64,000 bases of DNA from an uncultured Pseudomonadales bacterium (GTDB taxonomy: Bacteria; Patescibacteriota; Microgenomatia; UBA1400; PJMF01): contig CAZSJW010000001.1 in assembly GCA_964607285.1 (NCBI GenBank), positions 250,555-314,554 on the forward strand. The letters are read 5' to 3'. The stretch's first letter is position 1. The number at the start of each line of letters is the position of its first letter. A model generated the notes under the pieces. It did not search any database and was not told where the DNA came from. It saw only the letters and a list, made by a program, of their open reading frames with translations. Shown here piece by piece: positions 12,080 through 35,649 of this stretch. The position numbers and the translations under genes were made by a program.

Positions 12080-12082
12080 CTT

Positions 12083-13489: not shown

Positions 13490-13628
13490 ATTAAATCCTA
13501 ATTAGTTTTTATATAAGACTCGTTCATTATAGTTCACATCATGAATATGTCAATATAAATAATTATTGCGATATTAATTTATACGTATATAATACACACA
13601 GTATACACAGAATTCAGTAAGTCAAGCA

Positions 13629-19265: not shown

Positions 19266-19334
19266 TTGTTTTATCAATCATTCTTTTACCCTCTTTACAG
19301 AGGTTGTTTTTTTTGCCATACTCCATCTATTAAC

Positions 19335-19369: not shown

Positions 19370-19801
19370 ATGCTTATCGGGACTTACTATCACACCCTAG
19401 AAGCACATGGCCGAGTATCGTTACCCAAGTCTTTTCGCCAAACTCACTTACAGTGGGTGGTAACAAGAGGACTTGATGGAGGCTTGTTTCTTTTCCCAGC
19501 CGAGCAGTTTACTGCAGAGCTTCAGAAACTAAACAGTCGCTCCTTCACAACGAAACGCAACCGTGACTTTGTTCGCCTGATGACAAACGAAGCCATGGCA
19601 GTGACACCAGATAAGAACGGTCGAGTACAACTGCCCGAGTACTTGATTGAGTTCGCCAAACTCAACAAAAACCTTGTTGTAGTGGGAAGCTTGTCCCGAG
19701 CAGAAATCTGGGATCGAGATGCCTACCACACCTATATGCAAGCCACCGAATCGGAAGCAGAAGCAATCGCCGAAAGCCTAGCAGAAACAAAGCATGATTA
19801 A
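19370..19801 (+). CDS. mraZ: Transcriptional regulator MraZ
   Basis: MLIGTYYHTLEAHGRVSLPKSFR ... DKNGRVQLPEYL shows the two MraZ/SpoVT-AbrB repeats. First gene of the dcw cluster. Confidence 0.85.
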   Translation: MLIGTYYHTLEAHGRVSLPKSFRQTHLQWVVTRGLDGGLFLFPAEQFTAELQKLNSRSFTTKRNRDFVRLMTNEAMAVTPDKNGRVQLPEYLIEFAKLNKNLVVVGSLSRAEIWDRDAYHTYMQATESEAEAIAESLAETKHD

Positions 19802-20687
19802 GCTTGATAGACAACACAAATCAGTCCTCTTAGCAGAAAGCGTTGCCGCGCTGCAGATCCAGCCAAATCAGTGGTACGTAGATGCTACCTTTGGACGCGG
19901 CGGACACACGCAAGCAATTCTCAAAGCAGGGGGCAACGTATTAGCCTTCGACTGGGATGCAGAAGCAGTTGCATATGGCCAAACCATGTTCGTTCGCGAA
20001 CTTGAAGAACAGCGCTTGCTGCTAATTCACTCGAACTTCGAGTACTTGAGCAAAGAGCTACAAAACCTAGCTCCAGAGCAAAAAAGACCCAGCGGCTTCC
20101 TCTTTGACTTTGGCACCAGCACCGAGCAACTTACATCTAGCGAGCGAGGCTTCAGCGTCCATGATGACGGTCCATTGGACATGCGCATGGACACTCGCCT
20201 AGGAGTACAAGCCAAAGACCTGCTAGCAGCTGTTCCCGAAGTCCAGCTGGCCGATCTTTTTTTCAAGTTTGGTGGAGAAGAGGAGTCCAGAGGAGTCGCC
20301 AAAGCAATCAAGCGACACAAAGAGCCAATCACCACCACCAGGCAACTAACTGACATCATCAGCAAAGCAAAAAAGCGGCACGGAGGACACCTACATCCTG
20401 CAACAAAAGTCTTTCAAGCGCTAAGAATTGCAGTCAACAGCGAACTCACCGCAATCGAGCAAGCCTTACCAGAGGCACTCACCGCAGTTTTACCAGAAGG
20501 AAGAATCGTCACAATCGCGTTTCATGACGGAGAAGACCGCCTAGTTAAATTTGCTTTCCGAGACTGGGAAGCCAAAAACATGGGCAAAAGTATAACAAGT
20601 AAACCAATTACAGCATCAGCAGATGAGCTCAACCATAACCCCAGAGCTCGCAGTGCAAAACTACGTATTTTTGAAAAAAGTAAGTGA
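19794..20687 (+). CDS. rsmH: 16S rRNA (cytosine1402-N4)-methyltransferase RsmH (MraW)
   Basis: YVDATFGRGGHTQAIL. Position directly after mraZ. Confidence 0.9.
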   Translation: MIKLDRQHKSVLLAESVAALQIQPNQWYVDATFGRGGHTQAILKAGGNVLAFDWDAEAVAYGQTMFVRELEEQRLLLIHSNFEYLSKELQNLAPEQKRPSGFLFDFGTSTEQLTSSERGFSVHDDGPLDMRMDTRLGVQAKDLLAAVPEVQLADLFFKFGGEEESRGVAKAIKRHKEPITTTRQLTDIISKAKKRHGGHLHPATKVFQALRIAVNSELTAIEQALPEALTAVLPEGRIVTIAFHDGEDRLVKFAFRDWEAKNMGKSITSKPITASADELNHNPRARSAKLRIFEKSK

Positions 20688-20980
20688 ACATGACACATCG
20701 AACTATCGGAATTTACTACACTATTATCGGCATCATTGTACTGTCGCAAACAGTAGTAACCGTTATTTCTGGAGGAAGCATAGTGCTAAACAGTACAGCA
20801 CTAGCGGAACTAAAAAAGGAAAGACAAACACTCTTGCAAACGCGCCAAGTTTTTGAAACTGAACTAACAAAACAAAGTGCCCTAACCGCCTTGCCTGAAG
20901 ACGCGACTTTGCAGTATATTGCCATTACACACCCAATTGTGCTACCCAGCAGCAATACAGTGGCAAGTACACAACCCTAA
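20684..20980 (+). CDS. ftsL: FtsL-like division protein (small bitopic, coiled coil)
   Basis: 98 aa with a single TM (IGIYYTIIGIIVLSQTVVTVI) followed by a helical segment. Canonical position between rsmH and ftsI. Confidence 0.45.
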   Translation: MNMTHRTIGIYYTIIGIIVLSQTVVTVISGGSIVLNSTALAELKKERQTLLQTRQVFETELTKQSALTALPEDATLQYIAITHPIVLPSSNTVASTQP

Positions 20981-20989
20981 GCATCTCGT

Positions 20990-22789
20990 ATGACCTCCTC
21001 AGACCAGCCTGGATTACTTCCTGAAATAGTGGCACTTCGTGGTCGATGGTTTTTTGCTTTGCTGTGCATGATCTACATTGCTATTTTTTTTCGTTTAGGA
21101 TATTGGCAAGTAGTAGAGGGAGCAGAACTGAGCTCAGCAGCAGACGATCAATACTCTAGGTCAGTCACAAAAACTGGCAAACGAGGTGACATACTTACCG
21201 CCGATGGCTACACTCTTGTGACAAACGAAGTCATGTATCGATTGTTTGCACAACCCAAGCAACTGAAAGATGAACCATTGGATATTGCCACCCTGTTGGC
21301 TCCACTACTTGTATCGCAAACAGCTAGCTCTGCAGCAGAACGTACCGATGAACTAGCACAAATCAAGCTAGACCTCACGGAAAAACTTTCCAAAGACCGC
21401 TCTTGGATCAACTTGCAGTATTCGGTCTCAGCACCCGTCAAAAGTCAGATTGAAGATTTAAACATTCATGGCATCGGATTTGATCCTTACGACCGCAGAT
21501 ACTATCCAGAAGCTTCAATGGCTGCGCACATACTTGGCTTCGTTGGAAAGACTGAAAACGGTGACGAAGTTGGGTACTTTGGATTAGAAGGTTCACTAGA
21601 TAAAGAGCTAAAAGCACGTACAATAACTAACACAGTTTTGACCGATGCATTAGGTTCCTTAGTACAGTCTGATGGTATATTTTCAACGGCAATTTTAGAC
21701 GGTCGGCGTGTTACGACAACCATCCGCCGTGACATACAACATGTGGCAGAAACTCAACTCAAGTTAGGTATGGAACAATACGGTGCCAAAGCTGGTGAAA
21801 TCATCATTATGGAACCAAAGACAGGTAAAATTCTTGCTATGGCAAGCTTTCCCAACTATGAACCTGATCATTTTTATGACACGGACCCTCAGTTGTATAA
21901 AAATCCAAGCATCACAGATATTTATGAACCTGGATCTACTTTTAAGGTTTTGACTGTTTCCGCAGGCATCGACTCGGGGGTTATCAACCCAAGCACGGAG
22001 TGTCCAAAATGTGCGACTCCAAGGGTATTCGGACAATATACCATCCGAACTTGGAATGATGTGTATAACCCCAATATCATAATGGAGCAAGCACTTGCCA
22101 AATCTGACAACACCGCAATGATGTACATAACAGATTTGCTTGGTGCTGATCGCTTTAAAACATATGTGCAAAAGTTTGGAATAGGCCACACATTGGGGAT
22201 TGAACTACAAGAAGATACGAGCACGCCATTTCCACAAAAGTGGGGTCCTGTAGAGTTAGCAACTATCTCTTTCGGCCAGGGCATTAGCACAAATAGTTTG
22301 CAAATCACTAATGCCGTAGCTGCAATTGCTAATGGAGGCTCTCTCATGCGCCCCATGCTAGTTTCATCTGTAGAAGATACTGTTTCAAACGAAAGCATTG
22401 AAATAAAGCCGCAAACTATTCGACAGGTTGTTTCCCCCCAAACTGCAAGTACAGTCACTAACATGATGATCACAGCAGCGCAAAGTGGTGAGGCTCAGTG
22501 GACCTCATCCAAATCCCACACTATTGCTGGAAAAACTGGCACATCACAGGTAGCAAATGCTGGAGGATATGACGAGAATAAAACTATCGCAAGTTTTATA
22601 GGATTTGCACCTCCAGAAAATCCGAAATTTATTATGTTAGTCAAACTGACCGAACCAACAACTTCCCCATGGGCAGCGGAAACTGCTGCACCCCTGTGGT
22701 ACAAGATTGCAAGTAAATTGTTTTTGCTTTTGCAAATACAACCTGATAGAACTACGGGAACACCTGCTACAATTAGTACTAGTTTATGA
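20990..22789 (+). CDS. ftsI: Peptidoglycan D,D-transpeptidase FtsI (class B PBP)
   Basis: N-terminal TM. Motifs STFK (EPGSTFKV), SDN (KSDNTAM) and KTGT (AGKTGTSQ). Confidence 0.85.
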   Translation: MTSSDQPGLLPEIVALRGRWFFALLCMIYIAIFFRLGYWQVVEGAELSSAADDQYSRSVTKTGKRGDILTADGYTLVTNEVMYRLFAQPKQLKDEPLDIATLLAPLLVSQTASSAAERTDELAQIKLDLTEKLSKDRSWINLQYSVSAPVKSQIEDLNIHGIGFDPYDRRYYPEASMAAHILGFVGKTENGDEVGYFGLEGSLDKELKARTITNTVLTDALGSLVQSDGIFSTAILDGRRVTTTIRRDIQHVAETQLKLGMEQYGAKAGEIIIMEPKTGKILAMASFPNYEPDHFYDTDPQLYKNPSITDIYEPGSTFKVLTVSAGIDSGVINPSTECPKCATPRVFGQYTIRTWNDVYNPNIIMEQALAKSDNTAMMYITDLLGADRFKTYVQKFGIGHTLGIELQEDTSTPFPQKWGPVELATISFGQGISTNSLQITNAVAAIANGGSLMRPMLVSSVEDTVSNESIEIKPQTIRQVVSPQTASTVTNMMITAAQSGEAQWTSSKSHTIAGKTGTSQVANAGGYDENKTIASFIGFAPPENPKFIMLVKLTEPTTSPWAAETAAPLWYKIASKLFLLLQIQPDRTTGTPATISTSL

Positions 22790-24003
22790 TCAAAGAACTT
22801 ATTTATAAAATCAAGCGACCGTATCACTTTTTGAAAACAGGAATTCTAAACGGATTGATTTCCGAAGTTGCAAATGGTTTTCCAGCTAGAAAACTTAGCG
22901 TGTTAGCAATTACGGGTACGGACGGCAAAACCACATCAGCAACCCTACTGTACTTTGCTCTCAAGCAAGCTGGTTTTAAAGTAGCACTGCTTTCAACTGT
23001 TGCCGCATTCAAGGGTGAAACCGTCATTGACACTGGTTTTCACGTAACTAGTCCTCAGCCATCAGATGTTCAAAAGTTCATGGCAGAGTTAGTTCAAGAT
23101 GGGTTTACGCATTTAGTTCTAGAAGTAACGTCTCATGGTGCATACCAATACCGTACCTGGGGCATTAATCCCAGCATTGCAGGCATAACAAACATAAACC
23201 AAGAACACCTTGACTACCATCTTTCGTACGACAGATACGTTGCTGCCAAGACACTTGTACTAAAACAGGCCCCAACAGTTGTGCTTAACGAAGATGACAT
23301 TTCCTATTATCGTTTAAGAAAAATACTAAGCAACCAGGATATATCAATCCTGGCATACAGCATGAGTGACCGACTACCAACAGTTGTTTCCAAGGCAATT
23401 AGCGAAAGATTTCCCGAACAATACAATCGAATGAACGCACGATTAGTATACAAAATTGCCAAAGAGTACGGTATATCCAATAGTGACTTTGCAACTGCTG
23501 TGCAAAACTTCCCTGGCATACCTGGCAGAATGGAGAGCATCCCAAATAAACTAGGCATCTCCATTATTGTGGACTTTGCTCACACACCCCAAGGTCTGGA
23601 AGCCGCGCTCACTGCATTACGAAAACAACTGAACCAACAAAAGAACCCTGGGAAACTCATTGCAGTTTTCGGCTGTGCGGGACTTAGAGATAGCGGTAAA
23701 CGTCCTATCATGGGAGCAATCGGTGCGGAACTTGCTGACTTCGCAGTATTTACAGCTGAAGACCCTCGAACTGAAAATCTTTGGTCTATACTGAACCAAA
23801 TGAAGAGCTCACTTGGTACTCACCATACTTCCGTCACCTCAATTGCAGATAGAGGAGAAGCTATTGCTTTCGCACTATTTTCTATAGCTAAGCGTGGTGA
23901 CACAGTTGTGATTCTCGGCAAGGGTCACGAACAAAGTATGTGCTTTGGCACAATTGAGTACCCATGGAGTGACCAGAAAGCTGTACTTGAACTGCTCACA
24001 TAG
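22786..24003 (+). CDS. murE: UDP-MurNAc-L-Ala-D-Glu--2,6-diaminopimelate (or L-Lys) ligase MurE, lacking the usual N-terminal domain
   Basis: ITGTDGKTTSA is the P-loop. LEVTSHGAYQYRTWGI, NINQEHLDYHLSYDRYVAAK, IVDFAHTPQGLEAAL (MurE-specific DYAHTPDAL), VFGCAGLRDSGKRPIMG and GKGHEQ are collinear with E. coli MurE. Only ~40 aa precede the P-loop, versus ~110 in E. coli. Confidence 0.8.
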   Translation: MIKELIYKIKRPYHFLKTGILNGLISEVANGFPARKLSVLAITGTDGKTTSATLLYFALKQAGFKVALLSTVAAFKGETVIDTGFHVTSPQPSDVQKFMAELVQDGFTHLVLEVTSHGAYQYRTWGINPSIAGITNINQEHLDYHLSYDRYVAAKTLVLKQAPTVVLNEDDISYYRLRKILSNQDISILAYSMSDRLPTVVSKAISERFPEQYNRMNARLVYKIAKEYGISNSDFATAVQNFPGIPGRMESIPNKLGISIIVDFAHTPQGLEAALTALRKQLNQQKNPGKLIAVFGCAGLRDSGKRPIMGAIGAELADFAVFTAEDPRTENLWSILNQMKSSLGTHHTSVTSIADRGEAIAFALFSIAKRGDTVVILGKGHEQSMCFGTIEYPWSDQKAVLELLT

Positions 24004-24009
24004 TAACCT

Positions 24010-25005
24010 ATGAGGAAAAAAACAAACATCCCACATGTGGTCGTCATGGGAGGCGGCACGGGCACCTTTGCGGTCACCAGTGCATTGAAGCGACTTCCTT
24101 GCACAATTAGTGCCATTATTGCCGTTTCTGATTCTGGTGGATCAACAGGAAGAATCAGAGACGAGTTCGGGTTTCAGCCTGTTGGTGACTTGCGGCAATC
24201 ATTAGCAGCACTAGCTGATCTCTCAAGCCAGCAATGGATTCAAAAAATTCTCTTGTATCGTTTTGATAAGGGCAGCGGACTGCAAGGTCACAATCTTGGG
24301 AATCTTATTCTCACCGCACTTCAAGATATGAGCGGTAGCACAGGTAAAGCACTAGAGATTGCAGAAAAGATCTTCAACTTGCACGGGAAGGTTATTCCCG
24401 TCACAAACCAAACTGTGGACCTTAAAATTTTTTACCAAGATGGGTCTACAGTGATTGGGGAGCATATCTTAGATGAGTCTGATGAAAACCCCAAAAGCAT
24501 TGATCGAGTAGAACTGACCCCCGAATGCACACTAAATCCAGTCGCGCATGAAGAAATTCTTACAGCTGATTTTATTTGTATTGGTCCAGGGGACTTATAC
24601 GCGAGTTTACTTGCTACATTGGTAGTACCAGGGATCTCTGAAGCTTTTGCGCAAACCAAGGCAAAGATTGTGTATATACCAAACTTGATGACTAGACGAA
24701 CGCAAACTCACAATATGACAGCTCGTCAACACGTTGATAAAATTGCCGAGGTGTTAGGTCGTAATGTAGACATCATTCTCATAAATAACACTACTATTCC
24801 TCAAGCTATTTTGAAAGCCTATGCTGCCGAACAAGAGTTTCCAGTAACAGACACTCTAGCTGCTGATACTAGAGTGATTCGAGCAGACTTTCTCAAAGAG
24901 CAGCCCGTACCAAAAACCGCAACAGATACTGCATATCGGTCGTTACTTAGACACGACCCAGAAAAACTTTGTGCTGTATTTAGAACGATACTTTTCAAGG
25001 CATGA
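24010..25005 (+). CDS. yvcK: YvcK/CofD-family protein (UPF0052; gluconeogenesis factor / UDP-sugar-binding)
   Basis: VVVMGGGTGTFAVTSALKRL...IIAVSDSGGSTGRIRDEFG matches the YvcK GGGTG / DDGGSSGRLR motifs. Confidence 0.7.
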   Translation: MRKKTNIPHVVVMGGGTGTFAVTSALKRLPCTISAIIAVSDSGGSTGRIRDEFGFQPVGDLRQSLAALADLSSQQWIQKILLYRFDKGSGLQGHNLGNLILTALQDMSGSTGKALEIAEKIFNLHGKVIPVTNQTVDLKIFYQDGSTVIGEHILDESDENPKSIDRVELTPECTLNPVAHEEILTADFICIGPGDLYASLLATLVVPGISEAFAQTKAKIVYIPNLMTRRTQTHNMTARQHVDKIAEVLGRNVDIILINNTTIPQAILKAYAAEQEFPVTDTLAADTRVIRADFLKEQPVPKTATDTAYRSLLRHDPEKLCAVFRTILFKA

Positions 25006-26420
25006 AAAAAATATTTCACTTCAACCACGCACATTTAGTCGGTATCAAGGGCGTTGCTATGACCTCGCTGGCTCAAATACTCACTGATGCCGAAATTTCA
25101 GTTACTGGATCAGATGTACCAGAAAACTATGTGACAAAGCAGCAACTTGATCGTCTTGCAGTTGATGTCCAGTCTAGTTTCCATGAACCATTACCGCCCT
25201 TGACAGATGTAGTTATTTACACAGCAGCTCATCAGGGAGAAAACAACCCTCAGGTCCAAGCTGCGCAAAAACAAGGGATACCTTGTTATTCTCAGGCAGA
25301 GGCTATCAGTTTTTTTGCAAATGCAAAAGAGGTGATTGCTGTCTGTGGCGTAGGTGGAAAATCTACTGTGAGTGCAATGATTACCTGGATTTTAGAATGG
25401 AATCAACGCCACCCTTCCTTTTCAGTTGGCGTTGGCAATATTCCAGGACTCGAAAAAACTGGAGCGTGGAGAGCTAGTGGGCATCATTTTGTTGTCGAAG
25501 CAGATGAGTACGTCACAAACCCTACTGCTGTACTGGCAGGTGAGTTTGGCACCCCTAGGTTTTCATACCTCAAACCTAACTGTATTGTTGCCACAAACAT
25601 TACCTTTGATCACCCTGACGTGTACGCGGACTTCGAGCACACAAAGTCCACTTTTGCGGGGTTCTTTTCTAAACTGCCGCAGAATGGTCACTTAATTGCA
25701 ACCGAGCAAATATTACAACTTGGACTTCCTTTGCCAAACTGTGCAGTAGTTTCTGTATCAGATAGAGCGAATGCTACATATAGATATGAATATCTACCCC
25801 AAAAGAGCAAAGCGGGAACATCAGTCAGCCGCCTTATCATATCAAACTCAACCTTTACTGTTACCTTAGGACTGCCTGGAGAGTACAACATGCAAAATGC
25901 CGTGTGCGCAATTGCTGCCACCTCTACCGTAGGTGTTTCCGTACCAGATGCTATTGCTGCCTTGAGTACCTTTCGTTCCACTCAAAGACGATTTGAACTT
26001 CGGAAAACACGACTAAATAGTATTTTTTATGATGACTACGCACATCATCCGAGTGAAATTGAGGCAGTGATCAAAGCACTGAAGGAGTGGTATCCCGAGA
26101 AAAACGTGGTCGTTGCATTTCAGCCACATACATTTTCTAGAACACGTGCACTACTACAACAGTTTGCAGAGAGCTTGCAGCTTGCTGATAGGGTTCTCAT
26201 CTTAGACATTTTTGCATCTGCACGTGAGGCATACGACCCTAGTATCACAGCTGCAACCCTGGCAGATTCTGTCCGCACCATAAATCCTCACATACCAACA
26301 ACTGTCATTCCCGACACCCATGCGTTAAGTCAATACTTTTTGCACAAATTACCAGTCAATGCCGTTGTTCTCACTGCAGGAGCAGGCAATATTTATCAAG
26401 TGTATGATGAACTTCAATAG
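25002..26420 (+). CDS. murC: UDP-N-acetylmuramate--L-alanine ligase MurC
   Basis: N-terminal HLVGIKGVAMTSLAQIL...GSD. MurC-specific motif DDYAHHPSEIEAV. Confidence 0.85.
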   Translation: MKKIFHFNHAHLVGIKGVAMTSLAQILTDAEISVTGSDVPENYVTKQQLDRLAVDVQSSFHEPLPPLTDVVIYTAAHQGENNPQVQAAQKQGIPCYSQAEAISFFANAKEVIAVCGVGGKSTVSAMITWILEWNQRHPSFSVGVGNIPGLEKTGAWRASGHHFVVEADEYVTNPTAVLAGEFGTPRFSYLKPNCIVATNITFDHPDVYADFEHTKSTFAGFFSKLPQNGHLIATEQILQLGLPLPNCAVVSVSDRANATYRYEYLPQKSKAGTSVSRLIISNSTFTVTLGLPGEYNMQNAVCAIAATSTVGVSVPDAIAALSTFRSTQRRFELRKTRLNSIFYDDYAHHPSEIEAVIKALKEWYPEKNVVVAFQPHTFSRTRALLQQFAESLQLADRVLILDIFASAREAYDPSITAATLADSVRTINPHIPTTVIPDTHALSQYFLHKLPVNAVVLTAGAGNIYQVYDELQ

Positions 26421-27423
26421 TACTGAATCTATGACACCACTGCAAAAGCAACTACTAGCATCGTTTCCCAACTACACCTGGTTGTTTGACGAGCCTCTCT
26501 CACCCCTAACGTATGCAAAAATTGGTGGTGCTGCAGAAGCATTGCTAAAAGTGACTGATCCTGAAATTGCGGCAAGCGTTATTAAATTTTGCACCCAGTC
26601 AAACATACGGTGTACCTATCTTGGTGGCGCAAGTAATGTCCTCATAGACGATGCTGGTATTTCGGGTGTGGTGCTTCAATATCAGGATACTACCGTGCGT
26701 GTGATCCAAAGTGTTCCTTCGAAACAAACTATTGTCTTTATTGCGAGTGGAACAAAAACAGCACTTGCAGTATCAAAAACGGTTGCGTTGGGATTGACAG
26801 GTTTAGAGTATTTTCTGGGGGTACCTGGAACTATCGGCGGAGCAATTTATAACAATGCTCATTACTTGAGCGACTTGATTGACAAACACATTCTTCGAGT
26901 CCAGGCTATAACAGAACATGGAGACATTGTTTGGTATACACATGATGCCTGTGCATTCGACTATGAACAATCTAGGTTTCAATCCAATCATGAACTTATC
27001 GTTGGCGCAGAGTTTGCGCTGACCGCTGGCGATCCTGAAACGTCAAAAGCAAAAATTGCCCAAGCTACTCAATATCGTGCTGCTTCACAACCGCTTGGCA
27101 TACCTAGCTCGGGATGCATGTTTCGCAATCCAGCAAATACCCCAACACTTCGCCAACTGTTTCCACAATTTGCAGATAAGGATTACATTCCAGCAGGTTA
27201 CCTTATTGATCAAGCAGGGCTGAAAGGTGAGCGGGTGGGTGCAGTTAGTGTGAGTAAAAAGCATGCGGCATGGATTATCAATGGAGGTAATGGCACAAGT
27301 GCTGACGTAAAGAAATTAGTGAGCAATATTCAAAAGAAAATTGTAGAAAAGTATGGTGTTCAGTTAGAAACTGAAGTTTTTTTCTTGTCAGATAACACTG
27401 ACGAGAGTAGAAAGAACATATGA
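26404..27423 (+). CDS. murB: UDP-N-acetylenolpyruvoylglucosamine reductase MurB
   Basis: KIGGAAEALLKV...YLGGASNVLIDDAGISGVV is the FAD-binding domain. Start chosen at the ATG at 26404; the track starts at 26359 and 26431 is another candidate. Confidence 0.8.
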   Translation: MMNFNSTESMTPLQKQLLASFPNYTWLFDEPLSPLTYAKIGGAAEALLKVTDPEIAASVIKFCTQSNIRCTYLGGASNVLIDDAGISGVVLQYQDTTVRVIQSVPSKQTIVFIASGTKTALAVSKTVALGLTGLEYFLGVPGTIGGAIYNNAHYLSDLIDKHILRVQAITEHGDIVWYTHDACAFDYEQSRFQSNHELIVGAEFALTAGDPETSKAKIAQATQYRAASQPLGIPSSGCMFRNPANTPTLRQLFPQFADKDYIPAGYLIDQAGLKGERVGAVSVSKKHAAWIINGGNGTSADVKKLVSNIQKKIVEKYGVQLETEVFFLSDNTDESRKNI

Positions 27424-28751
27424 TGAGTTTACAAGTCACAGGAGGAACACCACTGCATGGATCTGTCAGGATTGGTGGAGCAAAAAATGCATCATTCAAA
27501 TTGATGATCGCAGCACTTTTAGGAGATACCGAGTCTAGGTTATTGAATTTTTCCCACATCAGTGACGTATCACTTGTTTCCAACATCATTGAATATCTGG
27601 GTGGTACAGTAACCCATGCAGGAGAGAGAGCCCTGTTTATAGACCCAACGCACCTAAACTCAGCCATCATAAACCCAGAACATGGTGAACAAGGTCGTTT
27701 TTCAACTATGTTTATTCCTGCATTGCTGGCAAAATTTGGCAGGGCAGAAGTTCCAACTCCTGGCGGTGACAAAATTGGCGTGAGACCACTGGATCGTCAC
27801 TTCGATGGTCTTGAGGCTATGGGTGTAGTGATTACCCATAAAGATGGCATGTTCATTGCTGAGGCAAAAGAACTACATGGTGCTAAGTATCGCTTCTCAA
27901 AAAACACTCACACAGGTACAGAGACACTTATTATGGCTGCCGTGAAAGCCAAAGGAACGACTGTGCTTGAAAATGCGGCAGTTGAACCAGAAATTGATGA
28001 TTTGATTACATTCTTGAACTCCATGGGAGCAAAAATCAAGCGAACAAAACCGCGAACCATTGAAATTTTTGGCGTACCATCTTTACATGGTGCTATACAC
28101 AAACTATTACCAGATCGTAACGAGGCAGTGAGTTATGCCTGTGCCGCGTTGGTTACTAAGGGTGACGTTGTGATAGAAAATGCTATTCCACAACATCTCA
28201 CCTCTTTCCTAGAGAAACTTGATGTAATCGGTGCTGGTTACGAAATAGGTAGCTATGGCATTCGTTTTTACTACAAAGGTCCTTTGCGTGCCACAGATGT
28301 AACAACTGCAATTGAACCTGGCTTCATGACAGACTGGCAGCCACTTTGGGGGACTGTGCTTACGCAATGTGAAGGGATAAGTACAATCCATGAGACAATT
28401 CACCCTTACCGATTTCACTATGTTGATGCTTTGCAAGCAATGGGAGCGCAGATAGAAAAATTCAACCCCAAAGTTTCAAATCCTGAATCAGTGTATAATT
28501 TCGATTTGGCCAATGACCAACCAGAACACTATCATGCTATTCGAGTCAAAGGGAGCACACAGTTACGTAGTGGCACATTCACTGTTAAAGACCTAAGACA
28601 TGGTGCTACCCTCATCTGTGCTGCCATGGCAGCACAAGGTACATCCACTATAACGGGTATAGAGCACATCGACAGAGGTTATGAAGCCCTGGATGATCGC
28701 TTGCGCTCAATGGGTGCTGCTATTGAACGAGTGAAAATCAATGACAAATGA
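27420..28751 (+). CDS. murA: UDP-N-acetylglucosamine 1-carboxyvinyltransferase MurA
   Basis: LQVTGGTPLHGSVRIGGAKNASFKLMIAALL. 443 aa. Confidence 0.9.
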   Translation: MMSLQVTGGTPLHGSVRIGGAKNASFKLMIAALLGDTESRLLNFSHISDVSLVSNIIEYLGGTVTHAGERALFIDPTHLNSAIINPEHGEQGRFSTMFIPALLAKFGRAEVPTPGGDKIGVRPLDRHFDGLEAMGVVITHKDGMFIAEAKELHGAKYRFSKNTHTGTETLIMAAVKAKGTTVLENAAVEPEIDDLITFLNSMGAKIKRTKPRTIEIFGVPSLHGAIHKLLPDRNEAVSYACAALVTKGDVVIENAIPQHLTSFLEKLDVIGAGYEIGSYGIRFYYKGPLRATDVTTAIEPGFMTDWQPLWGTVLTQCEGISTIHETIHPYRFHYVDALQAMGAQIEKFNPKVSNPESVYNFDLANDQPEHYHAIRVKGSTQLRSGTFTVKDLRHGATLICAAMAAQGTSTITGIEHIDRGYEALDDRLRSMGAAIERVKINDK

Positions 28752-28792
28752 ACTATAGTATTGAGTACTAGAAGACGAATAAGGTAACACGT

Positions 28793-29836
28793 ATGGGATC
28801 ACTTGCATTGTTTTTAAGCGTTTTAATTCTCTCATTTATTGTCATGAGTGTAGCTATCATCCCTTTTATAAATTTGCTCTATAAACTCAAGTTCCAAAGA
28901 GCCCAGCAAGAAACACGCGATGTATTTGGTGTTCTAACACCAATATTTAACATGTTTCATCAATCCAAAGCTGGAGTCCCTGTTGGCGGTGGTTTACTCA
29001 TCATCACGGTAGTGTCTTTGCTATTTGCAGGTCTACTACCCCTGCTACACTCTGCAGGAGTCACAATCACCAGTATTCATAGAAATGCCCAAGCAGAAGT
29101 AAACATTCTTTTTTTCACCTTTTTGTCTTTCGGACTATTGGGGTTAGTCGATGACGTGAAGAAGTTTTTTAAGCTAAAAAATGCAGGTTTGTTCGGGTTA
29201 CGAATGAAACACAAGCTAGTACTTGAACTTATTTTAGGAACTGCAATAAGTTACCTGTTGTACAGCTCACTTGGGATTTCAATTCTACATGTGCCGTTCA
29301 TTGGTACGTTTGAGTTAGGGTTTTTCTTTGTTCCATTTGCTACTTTCACTATCGTAGCATTTGCTAATGCCATCAATGTTACTGATGGACTTGATGGTCT
29401 AGCATCGGGGTCGCTGATGATTTCTCTCTTTGGTTTGTGGTTCTTATCTGCACACATTTTGGATGTACCGATTTCATTGTTTCTAGCACTATTGATAGGA
29501 GCACTTATATCATTTCTTTACTTCAACGTTTTCCCCGCTCGACTTTTTATGGGAGATGTTGGATCACTGGCTTTTGGTGCGACCCTTGCAGTAGTTGGGT
29601 TGCTTCTTGGAAAAACAATTGCCTTGGTTGTCATCGGTTTTATCTTTGTCTTTGAAATTAGTAGTACTTTGATCCAATTGCTGGCAAAAAGATTTTTAAA
29701 ACGCAAAGTTTTTCCCGCAGCTCCATTTCACCTGACATTACAGCAATATGGCTGGGAAGAACCAAAAATTGTGCAACGCGCGTGGTTAGTACAAATCATG
29801 CTCACCTTGTTTGGCGTATGGCTAGCCGTCCTTTAA
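28793..29836 (+). CDS. mraY: Phospho-N-acetylmuramoyl-pentapeptide transferase MraY
   Basis: NAINVTDGLDGLASG and FMGDVGSLAFGATLA. Ten TM segments. Confidence 0.9.
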   Translation: MGSLALFLSVLILSFIVMSVAIIPFINLLYKLKFQRAQQETRDVFGVLTPIFNMFHQSKAGVPVGGGLLIITVVSLLFAGLLPLLHSAGVTITSIHRNAQAEVNILFFTFLSFGLLGLVDDVKKFFKLKNAGLFGLRMKHKLVLELILGTAISYLLYSSLGISILHVPFIGTFELGFFFVPFATFTIVAFANAINVTDGLDGLASGSLMISLFGLWFLSAHILDVPISLFLALLIGALISFLYFNVFPARLFMGDVGSLAFGATLAVVGLLLGKTIALVVIGFIFVFEISSTLIQLLAKRFLKRKVFPAAPFHLTLQQYGWEEPKIVQRAWLVQIMLTLFGVWLAVL

Positions 29837-29843
29837 AACTCAT

Positions 29844-30941: not shown

Positions 30942-30955
30942 CTGTGTGATGCATT

Positions 30956-32071
30956 ATGAAAATCTTACTAACTGGTGGTCATCTGACTCCTGCTTTAGCA
31001 CTCATTGATTACCTCAAGGTACATCTCCCTGAAGCTGAGTTGGTTTTCGTGGGAAGGGAGTACGCTCAATCAAATCGACAAAAAGCACATGAGAGAACGG
31101 AAGTACAAGAACGAAATGTGCCGTTTTTCCCCATTCATTCAGGTAAGTTGGGATTTGCCAACCCAGTCCAATTAATTGGGCAAAGCTTTAGAATAATAGC
31201 TGCAACAATAACATCATTTGTAATCCTGCTAAAACTTAAACCAGACATCTGCGTATCATTCGGAAGTTATTTAGCAGTACCCGTAACACTTGCTGCTTGG
31301 GTCTTAAGAATTCCAGTCCTTACTCATGAACAAACCAAAACAGCTGGTTTCGCAAATCGAGTAATTGGACTCATGGCAAAAAAAATTGCCATAGCGTATC
31401 CTGAAAGCGTACCATTTTTCCCAAGAAAAAAAACTCTACTTACGGGTAATTTGGTACGAGAGCGAGTACTAACACAGTCAAACACAAAACCTGAATGGAT
31501 AACCAATAAAACAGTACTCCCAATCCTGTATATTACTGGTGGAAGTCAAGGGTCAGAAATTATTAATAGCACAATATCACAGTCGCTCAAACGCTTACTG
31601 AAGGGGTGGTGTATCATCCATCAGTGTGGAAACCCCAGTGCGCACCGGGATTATGCTGCCGAATTACGCTTATCTGCAGCCCAACTGCCCAGCAGCTTGC
31701 AACAAAGGTACTATGTGAGAGAGTGGATTTCTGATAGTGACTTAGCTTGGATTTACACCCACGCTACAGCAATAATCTCGCGTGCAGGTGCGAACTCGGT
31801 AGAAGAAATAGCTTTACGAGGAATTCCTGCAATACTAATTCCACTTCCATTCTCTTTACGTGATGAGCAGCTACATAATGCTTTGGCACTGAGTGAAAAG
31901 GGGCAAGCCATGTTACTTCCACAAAAAGATTTGAATCCTGAGACATTGCTTTTGACTATTAGTCAGCTTACAAAAAAAAGTAGGAGCATTAAAGAATCTT
32001 TGAGCGATTATGTAAGTGATTCTAAGACAGCCTTACCAACTGTGACTAAACTGATAACTGAGATTGTGTAA
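30956..32071 (+). CDS. murG: UDP-GlcNAc:lipid I N-acetylglucosaminyltransferase MurG
   Basis: MKILLTGGHLTPALAL and ITGGSQGSEIIN. Confidence 0.85.
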   Translation: MKILLTGGHLTPALALIDYLKVHLPEAELVFVGREYAQSNRQKAHERTEVQERNVPFFPIHSGKLGFANPVQLIGQSFRIIAATITSFVILLKLKPDICVSFGSYLAVPVTLAAWVLRIPVLTHEQTKTAGFANRVIGLMAKKIAIAYPESVPFFPRKKTLLTGNLVRERVLTQSNTKPEWITNKTVLPILYITGGSQGSEIINSTISQSLKRLLKGWCIIHQCGNPSAHRDYAAELRLSAAQLPSSLQQRYYVREWISDSDLAWIYTHATAIISRAGANSVEEIALRGIPAILIPLPFSLRDEQLHNALALSEKGQAMLLPQKDLNPETLLLTISQLTKKSRSIKESLSDYVSDSKTALPTVTKLITEIV

Positions 32072-32094
32072 GTAGCCTTTATAAACTAGTACGC

Positions 32095-32802
32095 ATGAAA
32101 ACTATCATAAGTAAGATTTTTATTATTTGTATTGCTGTCACTTTTTTGTTTTGCATGCTTCGATACGTTGTTGTTGTCCACACAATTACTTGTTCAGTAA
32201 CAGACACAAGCGAACCTTGTCCAAACGAAGTAGTCTCAGATCTTCAAGTGTTGCTTGGAAACCCATTACTTTTTTCAAATCTTCCCACTGCAATTGAGTC
32301 GAGTATTTCAACTCAAGCATATGTATTGAACGGTTACAACCGACAACTACCTAACACCCTTGAAGTGCAACTGCACACAGCTGAGTATGAATTCGGAATC
32401 TCTACTGCAAAACGCAGTTTTACAGTCACCACAACTGGCAACATCCTTGAGAGACCAATCCCCTCCGAATTGCCTACTATTCATATGGAAAACAACTCTA
32501 TCTCAGAGCACACTCTTCCTTCAAATGAAATTATCACAATAGGGGAAACAGCGCTTAGCACATTATCTGCAATTAACCTCCCTTACAAATCAATACGGTA
32601 TGTATCTGACCAAGAAATGAAAATCGAATTGCAGGATACACCGATAACAGTTATAGTAGATCCCACAAGTGCTGAAGAGCAAATCAAATCTGTCCCACTT
32701 ATTCTGCAAAGTACTCAGGTTCAAACAATACCAGAGAAAATAATTGAACTTGATTTGCGATTTAACTTGCCCGTCATTCGTACCTCAGTACTAACAGAAT
32801 GA
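32095..32802 (+). CDS. ftsQ: FtsQ/DivIB-like division protein (TM plus POTRA)
   Basis: N-terminal TM, then a POTRA-like pattern (VTDTSEPCPNEVVSDLQVLLGNPLLFSNLP...RQLPNTLEVQLHTAE). Position between murG and ftsA. Confidence 0.5.
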   Translation: MKTIISKIFIICIAVTFLFCMLRYVVVVHTITCSVTDTSEPCPNEVVSDLQVLLGNPLLFSNLPTAIESSISTQAYVLNGYNRQLPNTLEVQLHTAEYEFGISTAKRSFTVTTTGNILERPIPSELPTIHMENNSISEHTLPSNEIITIGETALSTLSAINLPYKSIRYVSDQEMKIELQDTPITVIVDPTSAEEQIKSVPLILQSTQVQTIPEKIIELDLRFNLPVIRTSVLTE

Positions 32803-32874
32803 CAAGTGATGCAACATCTCAGACTGCAGTTTCCCAAACTGCGGCAACTCTGATATGCTTAGCAGACTGAAACT

Positions 32875-34200
32875 ATGGCTCAAACTTCTGTAATTACCGC
32901 GATTGATGTTGGGACTGATAAGTGCGTCACACTGATTGCATCTTTAGTACCCAACACGAACGAACTGCGAGTCTTGGGGGTCTCTGCCGTACCTTCCAAA
33001 GGCATGCGTAAAAGTCAGATCATTGACTTAGAACAAGTTCTCTCCACCATTACCGAAAGCTTGGATGGCGCAGAGCGTATGGCAGGCATGGATATAAAGA
33101 GTGCCTATGTATCAGTTTCAGGAGCACACATTGGTTCTTTGAACTCTAAAGGAGTTGTTGCTGTTGCTGCACCAGACCAGGAAATTATTCAAGAAGATGT
33201 AAACCGTGTTATTGAGGCAGCAAGAGCAATTTCGCTGTCTTCTGACAGAGAAATAATTCATGTCATTCCTAAGAATTTCAAAGTAGATTCACAGGATGGC
33301 ATAAAGGACCCCGTCGGCATGACGGGAGTACGGCTTGAGTCTGAAGCCCACATAATCACTGGTATGTCTACAGCCCTCCGCAATTTAGAAAAGTGCATGC
33401 ATGATCTTGGTCTGACCGTGGATGGTTTTGTGTTTGCTGGGCTTGCTGCAGCTGAAGTTGTACTCTCGGATACAGAGAAAGAACTAGGAATTGCAGTGAT
33501 CGATATTGGGGCGGGCAGCACTTCGCTTTGTGTATATGTGGATGGATCACTTGAGTTTACTACTTGCCTACCTGTAGGGGCACGGCACATAACACAAGAT
33601 ATAGCCCTTGGTTGCCGCGTAAGTATTGATACAGCTGAAAAAATAAAGATAGCGCTTTCAGCGGAAGTTCAGAAACCACTACTACCACATGCTGGAGAGT
33701 CCAAAGCAGAGTTTAATAAAAGGCGCAAAAAAGCTGATGAACTTAAACTGGCTGACATTGAGCAATCGGAGAGCACAGAAGTTCTCTCAAAACGTGATAT
33801 TCTTGAGGGAATTATGCTTCCTCGGATGCAAGAGATATTTTCTCTGGTTTCTGAAAAGCTCAAAGCACAGAATTTGCTATCCTCCATTCCTGCTGGTGTA
33901 GTAATCTCTGGTGGTGGGGCTGAAACTGCTCAAATTGCAGAAGTTGCAAAACGGGAACTCAATTTACCTGCTCGAATAGGGAAACCTGTAGAGCTGCAAG
34001 GATTAATCACAGACATTCATAAACCATCATACGCAGCAAGTGTCGGTCTGCTCATGCATGGTAAAAAACGAGGCAGCAGTGTGCCACCAAGTACATTGGG
34101 AGGCATTTCTGCTTTTTTCAAAGCCTCTCAACATACTGGTGGGGCTAATGGTTCTCTAGTACAAAAAATCATTTCATTTGCCAAGTCATTTTTGCCGTAA
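32875..34200 (+). CDS. ftsA: Cell division protein FtsA
   Basis: Actin-like ATPase: ITAIDVGTDKCV, IDIGAGSTSL, VISGGGAETAQIAEV. C-terminal amphipathic helix LVQKIISFAKSFL. Confidence 0.85.
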   Translation: MAQTSVITAIDVGTDKCVTLIASLVPNTNELRVLGVSAVPSKGMRKSQIIDLEQVLSTITESLDGAERMAGMDIKSAYVSVSGAHIGSLNSKGVVAVAAPDQEIIQEDVNRVIEAARAISLSSDREIIHVIPKNFKVDSQDGIKDPVGMTGVRLESEAHIITGMSTALRNLEKCMHDLGLTVDGFVFAGLAAAEVVLSDTEKELGIAVIDIGAGSTSLCVYVDGSLEFTTCLPVGARHITQDIALGCRVSIDTAEKIKIALSAEVQKPLLPHAGESKAEFNKRRKKADELKLADIEQSESTEVLSKRDILEGIMLPRMQEIFSLVSEKLKAQNLLSSIPAGVVISGGGAETAQIAEVAKRELNLPARIGKPVELQGLITDIHKPSYAASVGLLMHGKKRGSSVPPSTLGGISAFFKASQHTGGANGSLVQKIISFAKSFLP

Positions 34201-34326
34201 AACGTACAAGCTATATACACAGATAACTTTGTTCCAAGGTGTTTAAACCGAAAGCAAGCTTTGCAATCCTCACGAAACAGTGATACACTTTGAGCCGAAT
34301 AGTAGATAGTATTTTTAAGCGATGTT

Positions 34327-35649
34327 ATGGCATTAGTCAAACCTTCAAACACAACCTTCGCAAAGATAAAAGTTATAGGTGTTGGGGGTGGTGGTGGTAA
34401 TGCGGTTAACTCAATGATTTCTTCAAACCAAATTCAAGGTGTGGAGTTTATTACAGTAAACACTGATGCTCAGGCTTTACTGACGTCAAAAGCAGACACC
34501 AAGCTGCAAATCGGCTCAAACTTCACTAAAGGTTTGGGTTCAGGAGCAGACCCAGAGGTTGGGCGGACAGCAGCCGAGGAATCATATGAGAAATTGAAAG
34601 ATCTTCTTTACGACACAGACATGATTTTCATCACAGCAGGTATGGGTGGTGGCACAGGAACTGGTGCTTCTCCTATTATTGCTGAAATTGCCAAAGAGAG
34701 TGGAGCACTGACAGTAGCAGTGGTCACCAAACCATTTGCCTTCGAGGGTGTCCGACGTATGCGCACCGCAGAAGATGGCATCGCTTCACTAAAAGAAACT
34801 GTAGACACTCTCATTGTTATCCCTAATCAACGTTTGATGGATGTAGTTGATAAAAAAATGACCTTACTAGATGCATTTCGCCTTGCGGACAACGTTCTTG
34901 GTCAAGGAGTACAAGGCATTTCTGACCTTATTACTGTACCAGGTCTGATCAACGTAGACTTTGCAGACGTCAAAACTATCATGACTGAGTCGGGATCAGC
35001 TCTGATGGGAATAGGAGAAGCTAGCGGTGAAAATAGAGCTGCAACCGCAGCTCGTATGGCAATCGCCTCACCACTTCTGGAAGTCTCTATTGATGGTGCA
35101 AAGGGCATTCTCTACAACATCATTGGTGGTGAAGATATGACTATGACAGAAGTTTCAGATGCTTCAGCAATTATAGCTAATGCTGCTGATCCAGATGCAA
35201 ACATAATTTTTGGTGCAACCATAAACGAGAACATGGGTACTAACATCAAAATTAGCGTCATTGCCACTGGATTTGACGACCGACAAATGGGATATGCAAA
35301 TTCCAACCGACCTCTATTTGGAGCATACAGCAGAGACTCCAGGAGTCGATTAGGAGCACAGCGTGCGGATCAGCAACCACCTGAACCAACAGAGCCCACA
35401 CAACCTAGGATAGACAGAGCTCCTTCTGGTTTTACACAACCTCTCACAACTTCACAAATTTCTTCTCAAAATTTATCTATGGCAACATCTGACCCTTTCG
35501 TAAGATCTCAAGCTTTTGGTGATCAAGTAGGAAATCAAACTCAACAAAAATCATCTGCTGTAGATACCAACCAAGATGAGGATTCTGATACAGATTCCAC
35601 AGCGTTTGATGACGAGTTTGAGATTCCAGCCTTCTTGAGAAAGAAGTAG
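34327..35649 (+). CDS. ftsZ: Cell division GTPase FtsZ
   Basis: [11 protein letters not shown] and the tubulin signature [10 protein letters not shown]. Long disordered linker, then the conserved C-terminal peptide [13 protein letters not shown]. Confidence 0.95.

Follow-up and report, generated by a model that had tools for sequence, protein, structure and literature searches.

A clade-typical dcw operon with a yvcK-family gene and without murD, murF and ddl in a Microgenomates bacterium

The 64,000-nucleotide stretch of DNA analysed here (the window) comes from a Microgenomates bacterium (Patescibacteria/CPR) and carries an intact dcw operon whose genes share one direction and for the most part overlap. 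It contains no gene for MurD, MurF or Ddl, and a yvcK-family gene lies between murE and murC. We read it, with a probability of about 0.7, as a clade-typical derived operon that was shaped by stepwise gene removal, with the D-Glu and D-Ala-D-Ala steps encoded elsewhere on the chromosome.

Gene order and operon structure

Gene identities were assigned with Pfam and NCBIfam profiles. All 15 ORFs were found on the plus strand at positions 19370-35649 of the window, in the order mraZ-rsmH-ftsL-ftsI-murE-yvcK-murC-murB-murA-mraY-ftsW-murG-ftsQ-ftsA-ftsZ:

19370..19801, plus: mraZ, 143 aa; TIGR00242 111.7 bits (cut-off 98.35), PF02381
19794..20687, plus: rsmH/mraW, 297 aa; TIGR00006 267 bits
20684..20980, plus: ftsL-like, 98 aa, GTG start; by position, N-terminal hydrophobic (membrane) helix and coiled-coil-like stretch
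20990..22789, plus: ftsI, class B penicillin-binding protein, 599 aa; PBP_dimer and Transpeptidase domains
22786..24003, plus: murE, short form without N-terminal domain, 405 aa; TIGR01085 309 bits (cut-off 257)
24010..25005, plus: yvcK/glmR-family (CofD-like), 331 aa; TIGR01826 275.5 bits (cut-off 196), PF01933
25002..26420, plus: murC, 472 aa, three Mur ligase domains; TIGR01082 310 bits (cut-off 335), PF01225, PF08245 and PF02875
26359..27423, plus: murB, longest ORF 354 aa; NF010480 250 bits (from residue 39), TIGR00179 185 bits
27420..28751, plus: murA, 443 aa; TIGR01072 419 bits (cut-off 393)
28793..29836, plus: mraY, 347 aa; TIGR00445 169 bits, PF00953
29844..30941, plus: ftsW, SEDS family, 365 aa; PF01098 288 bits
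30956..32071, plus: murG, 371 aa; PF03033 and PF04101
32095..32802, plus: ftsQ/divIB-like, 235 aa; by position and N-terminal membrane helix
32875..34200, plus: ftsA, 441 aa; PF02491 and PF14450
34327..35649, plus: ftsZ, 440 aa; PF00091 and PF12327

The profile matches bear out the gene order and identities proposed in an earlier sequence-only reading of this DNA, including the YvcK-family gene flanked by murE and murC. Packing is also as tight as had been described there: mraZ and rsmH overlap by 8 nt, the pairs rsmH/ftsL, ftsI/murE, yvcK/murC and murB/murA by 4 nt each, and murC and murB by 14 nt, provided that murB starts with the ATG at 26407. The true murB start is probably this ATG or the one at 26404. 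Only 41 nt separate murA from mraY and 7 nt mraY from ftsW, so that the murF and murD slots are truly empty, and the vacancy of the murD, murF and ddl slots noted in that reading holds.

The FtsL-like protein gave no HMM match in Pfam or NCBIfam; an ORF of 96-99 aa occupies the same position in the relatives. The FtsQ-like protein of the window likewise had no HMM match, and its positional orthologues in the relatives match PF03799 weakly. The catalytic motifs of FtsI are intact (STFK at 316, SDN at 372, KTG at 515). The nearest MurE homologues carry the names Woesebacteria, Microgenomates, Pacebacteria or Patescibacteria. Across the clade, identity to the window proteins amounts to 66-78% for MraY, 59-74% for MurA, 56-65% for YvcK and 55-64% for MurE, with 92.5% between the MraY proteins of the window and of locus L001; these levels suggest that the cluster genes are under purifying selection.

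Identity of the two Mur ligases

The earlier reading had allowed for the 405-aa ligase being a misread MurD or MurF. This protein scores 309 bits with the MurE profile against 90 for MurD (cut-off 212) and 47 for MurF (cut-off 289), and the 472-aa ligase scores 310 bits with MurC against 62 and 51 for the same two families; MurD and MurF were rejected for both. A misannotation, which would make the in-cluster pathway less incomplete than it appears, could be suspected from the size of the 405-aa protein (about 90 residues below a normal MurE, no PF01225 domain) and from the score of the 472-aa protein, which falls slightly short of the MurC equivalog cut-off of 335 bits. MurC is nevertheless by far the best family for the latter (Mpl 173 bits, MurD 62 bits). 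We give the misannotation almost no credence, since besides the profile scores all PDB matches of the 405-aa protein are MurE, and in the relatives the true MurD and MurF are encoded by separate genes that coexist with orthologues of the two window ligases. The 405-aa protein is an authentic orthologue of MurE.

Its shortness is due to a missing N-terminal substrate-binding domain. The protein covers only positions 78-471 of the TIGR01085 profile, its PDB alignments begin at chain residues 90-101, and a stop codon directly 5' of murE means that the ORF cannot be extended. The missing domain had been overlooked in the earlier reading. Compared with MurE of E. coli (1e8c), T. maritima (4bub) and M. 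tuberculosis (2wtz), the window protein keeps the central ATPase and C-terminal domains, including the P-loop (GTDGKTT), a lysine (K155) aligned with the carbamylated K224 of E. coli and an xDPR motif (EDPR) in place of DNPR, but lacks the whole N-terminal domain of about 90 residues. In this last respect its architecture is like that of MurT, FolC and CapB-type ligases.

MurE without the N-terminal domain occurs in over 120 Microgenomates/Patescibacteria sequence clusters at an identity of at least 56%. Throughout the radiation both MurE and MurF lack this domain, also in relatives whose cluster encodes Ddl and MurF or MurD. Because the short MurE stands alongside Ddl and MurF in the cluster of L040, and alongside MurF and MurD in that of L088, the truncation does not imply that MurE function was lost.

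Synteny in related genomes

The window gene order is the standard layout of a whole clade within the Microgenomates and recurs in many relatives, whose MurE is 52-64% identical to that of the window. The same order, including cofD/yvcK, was found in L007 (on a 332-kb contig), L009 (BOKR01000001.1, 1.17 Mb, GCA_016861085.1), L010, L011, L024, L026, L031-L033 and L037. The cluster composition, unusual as had been claimed, is therefore not peculiar to one genome.

More distant Microgenomates show the arrangement murE-[accessory gene]-murC-murB-murA-(ddl)-murF-mraY-(murD)-ftsW, the identities of MurF, Ddl and MurD having been checked with TIGR01143, TIGR01205-type models and TIGR01087. Here ddl-murF or murF alone lies between murA and mraY (L040, L042, L043, L088) and murD between mraY and ftsW (L052, L088). 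An intermediate layout, with yvcK, without murF and with murL-murD between mraY and ftsW, is present in L013, L025, L092, L093 and three JGI contigs. As relatives hold ddl-murF and murL-murD or murD in exactly these places, the empty slots of the window are secondary deletions, and with both slots closed to 41 and 7 nt the window represents the last stage of a process in which ddl-murF and murL-murD were removed step by step from the cluster. Variation goes further in other loci: the murE-murC pair stands alone in the 21-kb loci L002, L027, L029 and L030, and the gene order is scrambled in L044, L060, L063 and L072.

Search for MurD, MurF and Ddl

A six-frame phmmer search of the whole 64 kb with MurC, MurE, three MurD, five MurF, two Ddl and one MurL as queries recovered only the two known ligases and no MurD, MurF, Ddl or MurL. 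Among the remaining ORFs of at least 240 aa, Pfam profiles revealed neither an ATP-grasp/Ddl domain nor another Mur ligase. The missing genes do not lie just outside the cluster, a possibility raised earlier: none was found in the 19 kb before it or the 28 kb after it. The in-cluster murD of the relatives described above set aside, no MurD, MurF or Ddl was found in any 21-kb locus carrying yvcK, nor was one seen in a genome with a window-type cluster.

We consider it likely that the three genes are located elsewhere in the genome, as dcw genes are commonly dispersed in this radiation. The cluster would then still drive a normal lipid II pathway, in which MurA and MurB would provide UDP-MurNAc, MurC would add L-Ala and MurE the diamino acid, MraY and MurG would form lipid I and lipid II, and FtsW/FtsI would polymerise and cross-link the product. 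Genes at other chromosomal sites would provide MurD for the D-Glu step, and Ddl and MurF for the D-Ala-D-Ala steps.

Alternatively, the subclade might truly have lost MurD (or MurL-MurD), MurF and Ddl and complete the precursor in another way, by salvage of peptides or muropeptides from a host, by altered specificity of the MurC-like and the domain-1-less MurE-like ligases, or by a non-canonical stem peptide. CPR bacteria are often episymbionts. The absence of the three genes from the 64 kb and from the yvcK-bearing loci is in line with such a loss, as are the positions of the clade MurD homologues: in the seven with readable context the gene was inside the cluster beside murL, and none was relocated. 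About 56 matches of the MurD search had at least 39% identity, among the matches listed; those below were mostly weaker and had the N-terminal domain of canonical MurD, a few of these being named Bacteroidales. Clade-like MurD clusters are thus, among the matches listed, much rarer than short-MurE clusters. The sub-cut-off MurC score with its secondary Mpl match (173 bits) and a MurE without the domain that binds the UDP-MurNAc-peptide substrate (PMC10214165) point the same way. None of the 120 MurD matches listed was tied to the window contig (317,779 bp) or to window-type contigs of 1.09, 1.17 and 1.19 Mb, but this comparison is weak, as the query's own 1.2-Mb contig was also not among them, and the MurF search matches did not extend to the window lineage. 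True loss is unlikely in view of the intact genes that are meaningful only with a complete pentapeptide (MurE, MraY with up to 92% identity, MurG, FtsW, and FtsI with its SxxK/SxN/KTG motifs), the short MurE of relatives with in-cluster Ddl and MurF or MurF and MurD, and the frequent dispersal of dcw genes. Moreover, all genes required for peptidoglycan synthesis have been identified in CPR genomes according to a review (PMC10221324).

The YvcK-family gene

The yvcK-like gene is conserved to the level of murE and is hence a real member of the cluster. Its product matches solved UPF0052 proteins with E-values of 1e-40 to 1e-55 over about 270 residues, the best being the UPF0052/YvcK proteins 2hzb and 2o2z (about 1e-55). 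It passes the TIGR01826 model and in this is like YvcK/GlmR of B. subtilis, CuvA of M. tuberculosis and the UPF0052 proteins 2hzb, 2o2z, 2ppv, 2q7x and 2p0y. The window gene differs from those of YvcK/GlmR and CuvA in its place inside the dcw operon, between murE and murC; no glmS, rapZ or whiA neighbour was found within the window. Functionally, the YvcK family is tied to UDP-GlcNAc and to the supply of cell-wall precursors, and judging by family membership the protein is most likely a UDP-GlcNAc-sensing regulator. As in Firmicutes and mycobacteria, it would bind UDP-GlcNAc and match precursor supply to the co-translated MurA, MurB and MurC steps.

A different role would be that of an enzyme, a CofD-type phosphotransferase with a nucleotide-diphospho precursor as substrate (for example a UDP-sugar or UDP-MurNAc-peptide), which would compensate for the loss of murF from the cluster or modify the pathway after it. 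CofD itself transfers a phospholactyl group from a GDP-linked donor and releases GMP, a reaction that formally resembles the transfer of a phospho-sugar from a UDP donor. No cluster among the loci fetched has both yvcK and murF, in L052 yvcK lies between murA and mraY, exactly in the murF slot, and conservation is as strong as for MurE. We nevertheless hold an enzymatic role to be quite improbable: the protein passes the YvcK model and has no match to the true CofD model, an ATP-dependent amide ligase is not replaceable by a phosphotransferase, and YvcK proteins are not known to catalyse any reaction. L020 and L022, otherwise identical in their clusters, have neither yvcK nor murF, which means that the two genes are not simply exchangeable.

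Comparison with known dcw clusters

As in the window, murF and ddl of B. subtilis are outside the dcw cluster and murB is inside. Unlike in the window, Firmicutes keep murD between mraY and ftsW/spoVE, and their yvcK belongs to a separate yvcJ(rapZ)-yvcK-whiA operon rather than to the dcw cluster.

Of the alternative MurD2/MurL pathway for D-Glu of Xanthomonas, whose published distribution does not include CPR bacteria (PMC8788868), the window has neither gene. Close relatives of the window organism have a MurL homologue in the dcw cluster, immediately 5' of murD (NF041275, E 3e-72; PF26299 and PF26298); with 243 bits this homologue scores far below the Xanthomonadales equivalog cut-off of 700.

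With the canonical E. coli-type cluster of 15-16 genes (17 with murA and murB, PMC8871954) the window shares the mraZ-rsmH-ftsL-ftsI-murE start, the core order mraY-ftsW-murG, the ftsQ-ftsA-ftsZ end, the same-strand orientation and the tight packing. It differs in the lack of murF, murD and ddl, in the inserted YvcK-family gene, and in the murC-murB-murA genes, which do not follow murG. The claim that murA and murB were recruited stands insofar as both are in the operon; recruitment itself is doubtful, given that the murC-murB-murA block is also present in a Bacillota MAG (L003), there after murG, and that murA and murB are part of the 17-gene version inferred to be ancestral (PMC8871954). What is specific to the window-type cluster is the placement of this block directly after murE.

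Gene content and packing of the dcw cluster

Fifteen ORFs, all running in one direction on the plus strand, fill the window from 19370 to 35649. Pfam and NCBIfam models identified MraZ, RsmH, a class B PBP (FtsI, transpeptidase motifs intact), MurE, a YvcK-family/CofD-like protein, MurC, MurB, MurA, MraY, FtsW, MurG, FtsA and FtsZ. The order given in the sequence-only reading, mraZ-rsmH-ftsL-ftsI-murE-yvcK-murC-murB-murA-mraY-ftsW-murG-ftsQ-ftsA-ftsZ, is thus real and was correctly described. Both ends of a dcw cluster are present and co-directional, with mraZ-rsmH-ftsL-ftsI at the 5' side and ftsQ-ftsA-ftsZ at the 3' side. The ORFs in the ftsL position (98 aa) and ftsQ position (235 aa) gave no HMM match; each carries an N-terminal membrane helix, the former also a coiled-coil-like stretch, and positional orthologues of the latter in relatives show a weak FtsQ_DivIB_C match. 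These two genes are assigned solely by position and sequence features.

Features of the dcw cluster
19370-35649, plus strand, dcw cluster of 15 ORFs
22786-24003, plus strand, murE (405 aa)
24010-25005, plus strand, yvcK-like gene (331 aa)
25002-26420, plus strand, murC (472 aa)
26359-27423, plus strand, murB
27420-28751, plus strand, murA

The 4-14 nt overlaps claimed for several neighbouring genes were also found, the other neighbours lying 6-126 nt apart. Only 41 nt separate murA from mraY and 7 nt mraY from ftsW, which leaves no room for murF and murD at their canonical places. Promoter and terminator scans of the cluster returned counts at the shuffled expectation (37 versus 36.7 and 15 versus 15.5), and the sole promoter-like/terminator-like pair, a weak one, lies 5' of mraZ at 19290-19322. 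A 191-aa ORF without family match (35675-36250) begins 25 nt past ftsZ and may be a member of the operon.

murD, murF and ddl are missing from the window

In the window murE is followed by yvcK-murC-murB-murA and not by murF, and mraY is not followed by murD. A misassigned ligase does not explain this. The 405-aa protein scores 309 bits with the MurE model TIGR01085 (cut-off 257.3), the next families being MurD (TIGR01087, 90.5 bits, cut-off 212), MurC (TIGR01082, 67.7 bits) and MurF (TIGR01143, 47 bits, cut-off 288.6), and its solved-structure (PDB) matches are MurE without exception. For the 472-aa protein MurC is the top family (TIGR01082, 310.3 bits, slightly short of the cut-off of 335.1; Mpl 173 bits), with all three Mur ligase domains (PF01225, PF08245, PF02875); against the same cut-offs it reaches 62 bits for MurD and 51.4 bits for MurF, and both identities were rejected.

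All six frames of the 64 kb were searched by phmmer with MurC, MurE and relatives' MurD, MurF, Ddl (two) and MurL sequences as queries; the two known ligases were the sole matches, with no MurF or MurD homologue and no Ddl either between murB/murC and ftsQ or elsewhere. Pfam scans of all other window ORFs of at least 240 aa and most smaller ones gave no Ddl/ATP-grasp domain and no further Mur ligase. By both methods a MurL gene next to murD is likewise absent from the window. The reported lack of murD, murF and ddl in the cluster is therefore borne out, and extends to the genes just beyond it as far as the window reaches.

Gene order in relatives

For the synteny comparison, MurE orthologues in assemblies were read with their 21-kb surroundings, and a metagenome scan contributed 80 loci (L-numbers). 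Annotation was by phmmer, with key genes confirmed by NCBIfam; P-numbers denote single proteins. The window order including yvcK recurs in relatives with MurE 52-64% identical (among them L007, L009 on a 1.17-Mb contig, L010, L011, L024, L026 and L031-L033) and in the more distant L037 (48%), while L020 and L022 show this order minus yvcK. The cluster is thus atypical against the canonical dcw cluster, as had been stated, but not peculiar to one genome. In the 52-64% group none of the 16 loci spanning the murA-mraY junction carries an insert; the mraY-ftsW junction has no insert in 10 loci and murL-murD in two (L013, L025), and is again without insert in L037. Five further contigs with the murL-murD pair were reached via MurD homologues; four have yvcK and no murF, and the fifth (P0138) was read over part of the cluster only. 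A MurL homologue lies beside murD in L013, L025, L092 and L093, and several MurD proteins there (L013:17054-19824, L025, L092:8626-11302, L093:8620-11374) are named L-glutamate ligases by JGI.

In more distant Microgenomates, which lie within the candidate phyla radiation (CPR), with MurE 39-48% identical (for example L040, L042, L043 and L088), the order is murE-[Fem/ATE_C-like gene or nothing]-murC-murB-murA-(ddl)-murF-mraY-(murD)-ftsW. L041 and L047 read murE-murF-mraY-ftsW, and in L052 yvcK sits where murF would be, after murA and before mraY. Among the loci analysed no cluster contains both yvcK and murF; a strict exchange of the two is nevertheless broken by L020 and L022, whose clusters have neither. 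The simplest reading of these gene orders is that the window would represent the most reduced state of a stepwise gene removal from a Microgenomates-type cluster, in which ddl-murF may have left first and murL-murD or murD afterwards.

In other Microgenomates and a Dojkabacteria MAG the gene between murE and murC is not yvcK but one for a 245-276-aa protein. The Dojkabacteria copy matches ATE_C and arginyltransferase models, and the protein is suspected to be an aminoacyl transferase of the Fem type; this position appears to be a hotspot for accessory genes of the cell wall.

The 245-276-aa protein in the murE-murC slot
L040:4727-5554
L004:9215-9952
also in L042, L043 and L048

Two loci titled 'uncultured Pseudomonadales bacterium', L001 (CAZBMX010000082.1) and L002 (CAZOVA010000003.1), have CPR/Microgenomates-like content (short MurE, murC-murB-murA-mraY, MraY 92% identical to that of the window), for which reason their label is probably wrong.

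The YvcK-like protein

The YvcK-family gene between murE and murC is confirmed by TIGR01826, which the 331-aa protein matches with 275.5 bits (cut-off 196), its residues 10-327 covering profile positions 1-308 of 310; solved UPF0052/YvcK proteins (PDB) match at E about 1e-55. CofD proper (F420 biosynthesis) was rejected, as the 2-phospho-L-lactate transferase model is unmatched and only TIGR01826 and a GAK-system CofD-like model were hit (E <= 1e-5). No RapZ (yvcJ) or WhiA domain was found in the window ORFs scanned, where the yvcK neighbours are murE and murC, and the window holds no glmS gene. Across relatives YvcK is 56-65% identical, about as much as MurE (55-64%) and more than MurC (44-49%); yvcK therefore belongs stably to the operon and is under selection there. 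GlmR/YvcK of B. subtilis is a UDP-GlcNAc-binding protein that stimulates GlmS, and in mycobacteria the family is represented by CuvA. By analogy the YvcK-like protein most likely couples UDP-GlcNAc supply in a regulatory manner to the MurA/MurB/MurC steps. A literature search yielded no paper on the mur gene content of Microgenomates. It also yielded no description of yvcK inside a dcw cluster; outside that search stands the dcw cluster survey of Megrian et al. 2022, which reportedly includes CPR genomes, and parts of the cluster layout may already have been described earlier.

A short MurE

The 405-aa MurE has no PF01225, matches TIGR01085 at profile positions 78-471 only, and its alignments with the MurE chains of E. 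coli, T. maritima and M. tuberculosis start at residues 90-101, all of which shows that its N-terminal domain is missing. In Mur ligases this domain binds the UDP-MurNAc-peptide (PMC10214165). An upstream stop codon blocks 5' extension of the ORF. The protein keeps the P-loop GTDGKTT, its K155 aligns with the carbamylated K224 of E. coli MurE, and its EDPR aligns with DNPR, with Arg kept and Asn changed to Asp, as in DDPR of T. maritima. At 56-100% identity to the window MurE there are more than 120 clusters (90% identity), in every one of which the protein is 401-438 residues long and carries its two Pfam domains, and many of the best 150 MurE representatives (50%-identity clusters) are of the short form as well. 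Judging from these sequences, the short form is not an artefact. Named homologues belong to Candidatus Woesebacteria, the Microgenomates group, Candidatus Pacebacteria and the Patescibacteria group; by lineage, MurE is full-length in WWE3 and short in Dojkabacteria and Microgenomates. MurF in the CPR lineages of L042, L040 and L005 is shortened like MurE (399-429 aa, TIGR01143 matched only from profile position 59-70), so that MurE is not the only ligase there to have lost its N-terminal domain.

Short MurF (TIGR01143)
L042:15639-16838
L040:10278-11498
L005:11697-12986

Fusions of Mur enzymes occur in this radiation. Among long MurE representatives the partners are MurC, MurC-MurB, MurD or a nucleotidyltransferase, and no MurE-YvcK fusion was found.

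Mur fusions
MurC-MurB, 817-839 aa
short MurE-MurC, 862 aa
MurE-MurC-MurB, 1251 aa
MurE-MurD, 912 aa
MurE with C-terminal nucleotidyltransferase domain (several), 657-716 aa
Loci: L031/L032:12161-14677; L052:11847-14297
Proteins: P0366, P0371, P0373, P0369, P0395, P0417, P0479, P0375, P0418

MurB and MurA

That murA and murB lie inside the cluster holds true; a murC-murB-murA block is not unique to the group, however, as the Bacillota MAG L003 has it too (ftsW-murG-murC-murB-murA). A 17-gene dcw version inferred to be ancestral also includes murA and murB (PMC8871954). What is specific to the group is the placement of murC-murB-murA directly after murE. When loci L009 (BOKR01000001.1), L024 and L033 were set against the window, MurB identity split into about 28% in some relatives and 46-56% in others; from these values two MurB types seem to occupy one slot within one clade. 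The window MurA carries GGDKIG, with Asp apparently in place of Cys. In E. coli MurA the motif at this site is GGCAIG, with Cys115 as the residue modified by fosfomycin, and comparison with other Asp-type MurA enzymes predicts intrinsic fosfomycin insensitivity.

Flanks of the cluster

Directly 5' of the cluster, between a conserved pair of genes (GlyRS and a 269-aa ORF) and mraZ (19370), stands a block of about 10 kb whose genes are of methyltransferase, glycosyltransferase and PIG-L-like type and whose GC is lower (0.37-0.39 at 10-16 kb). The corresponding interval measures just 130-210 nt or so in L007, L011, L020 and L031, which suggests that an island for glycan synthesis was inserted immediately upstream of the dcw operon in this lineage specifically. 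On the 3' side IleRS follows ftsZ in the window and in relatives. A second SEDS-family gene, RodA-like, adjoins a divergent PP2C-type phosphatase gene; no class B PBP partner is adjacent to it (42849-45356).

Flanking features
6968-9248, GlyRS and 269-aa ORF
9260-19265, methyltransferase, glycosyltransferase and PIG-L-like genes
39935-42817, IleRS
42849-44147, minus strand, PP2C-type phosphatase
44244-45356, RodA-like SEDS-family gene

Where MurD, MurF and Ddl may be encoded

We consider it probable (about 0.7) that MurD, MurF and Ddl are encoded elsewhere in the genome; a genuine absence of some or all of the three is unlikely. In the fullest form of such a loss, which we hold to be similarly improbable, a sizeable Microgenomates subclade would have lost MurD (with MurL), MurF and Ddl altogether and would build or complete the precursor by an undescribed route, conceivably from salvaged host peptides, with re-specified ligases or as a non-canonical stem peptide. 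It would have retained MurA, MurB, MurC, a MurE without domain 1, MraY, MurG, FtsW, an intact FtsI and the in-operon YvcK-like protein. In keeping with a loss, all seven clade MurD proteins read in context lie inside the cluster, and the MurD search gave only about 56 matches at 39% identity or more among the matches listed, those below 39% being mostly weaker, with a canonical MurD N-terminal domain and some named Bacteroidales. Of the at least 120 matches listed, none lies on a contig equal in length to that of the window (317,779 bp) or to the window-type contigs of roughly 1.1 Mb, a comparison prone to false negatives, as the 1.2-Mb contig of the query itself was not among them; three other lengths did coincide (268,319, 77,951 and 383,035 bp), and both of the contigs inspected have murL-murD within the cluster. 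The MurF search with the L042 query carries no information on the window's lineage, as all matches listed (at least 120, at least 53% identical) come from that of L042. Arguing against a loss, MraY, MurA, MurE, MurG and FtsW are strongly conserved, the FtsI motifs are preserved, and clusters of other lineages combine the short MurE either with Ddl plus MurF or with MurF plus MurD. Moreover, dcw genes are often dispersed in this radiation, and according to a review CPR genomes contain all genes needed for peptidoglycan synthesis (PMC10221324). A class IV aminotransferase 5' of mraZ in L009, considered as a D-amino-acid aminotransferase, is actually a branched-chain aminotransferase, and the hint of a canonical MurD that it offered was dropped.

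Comparison with known systems

Few bacterial gene arrangements are as conserved as the dcw cluster. A clade-wide variant with three essential precursor enzymes out of the operon, a YvcK-type gene in it and Mur ligases devoid of the N-terminal domain bears on the extent of dcw reshaping in reduced CPR genomes, on the function of YvcK proteins and on the dispensability of this domain in MurE and MurF. If the genes are simply elsewhere, the cluster is a tidy lineage-specific operon remodelling; true absence would suggest that uncultured bacteria, probably dependent on a host, complete their peptidoglycan precursor in an as yet unknown way, and only if the three enzymes prove missing genome-wide does the value of the finding rise sharply.

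Reports of the MurD2/MurL route are confined to some Proteobacteria and rare actinobacteria and do not extend to CPR bacteria (PMC8788868); here the murL-murD pair is present in relatives of the window and not in the window itself. With the canonical dcw cluster the window shares the ends and the core, while it departs from it in the murE-murF, mraY-murD and ddl features. In Firmicutes murF and ddl lie outside the dcw cluster, murD inside, and yvcK elsewhere with rapZ and whiA. The window resembles this arrangement in the exclusion of murF and ddl and differs in that murD is excluded as well and yvcK lies inside the cluster. The window's cluster is thus a known system in a variant typical of its lineage.
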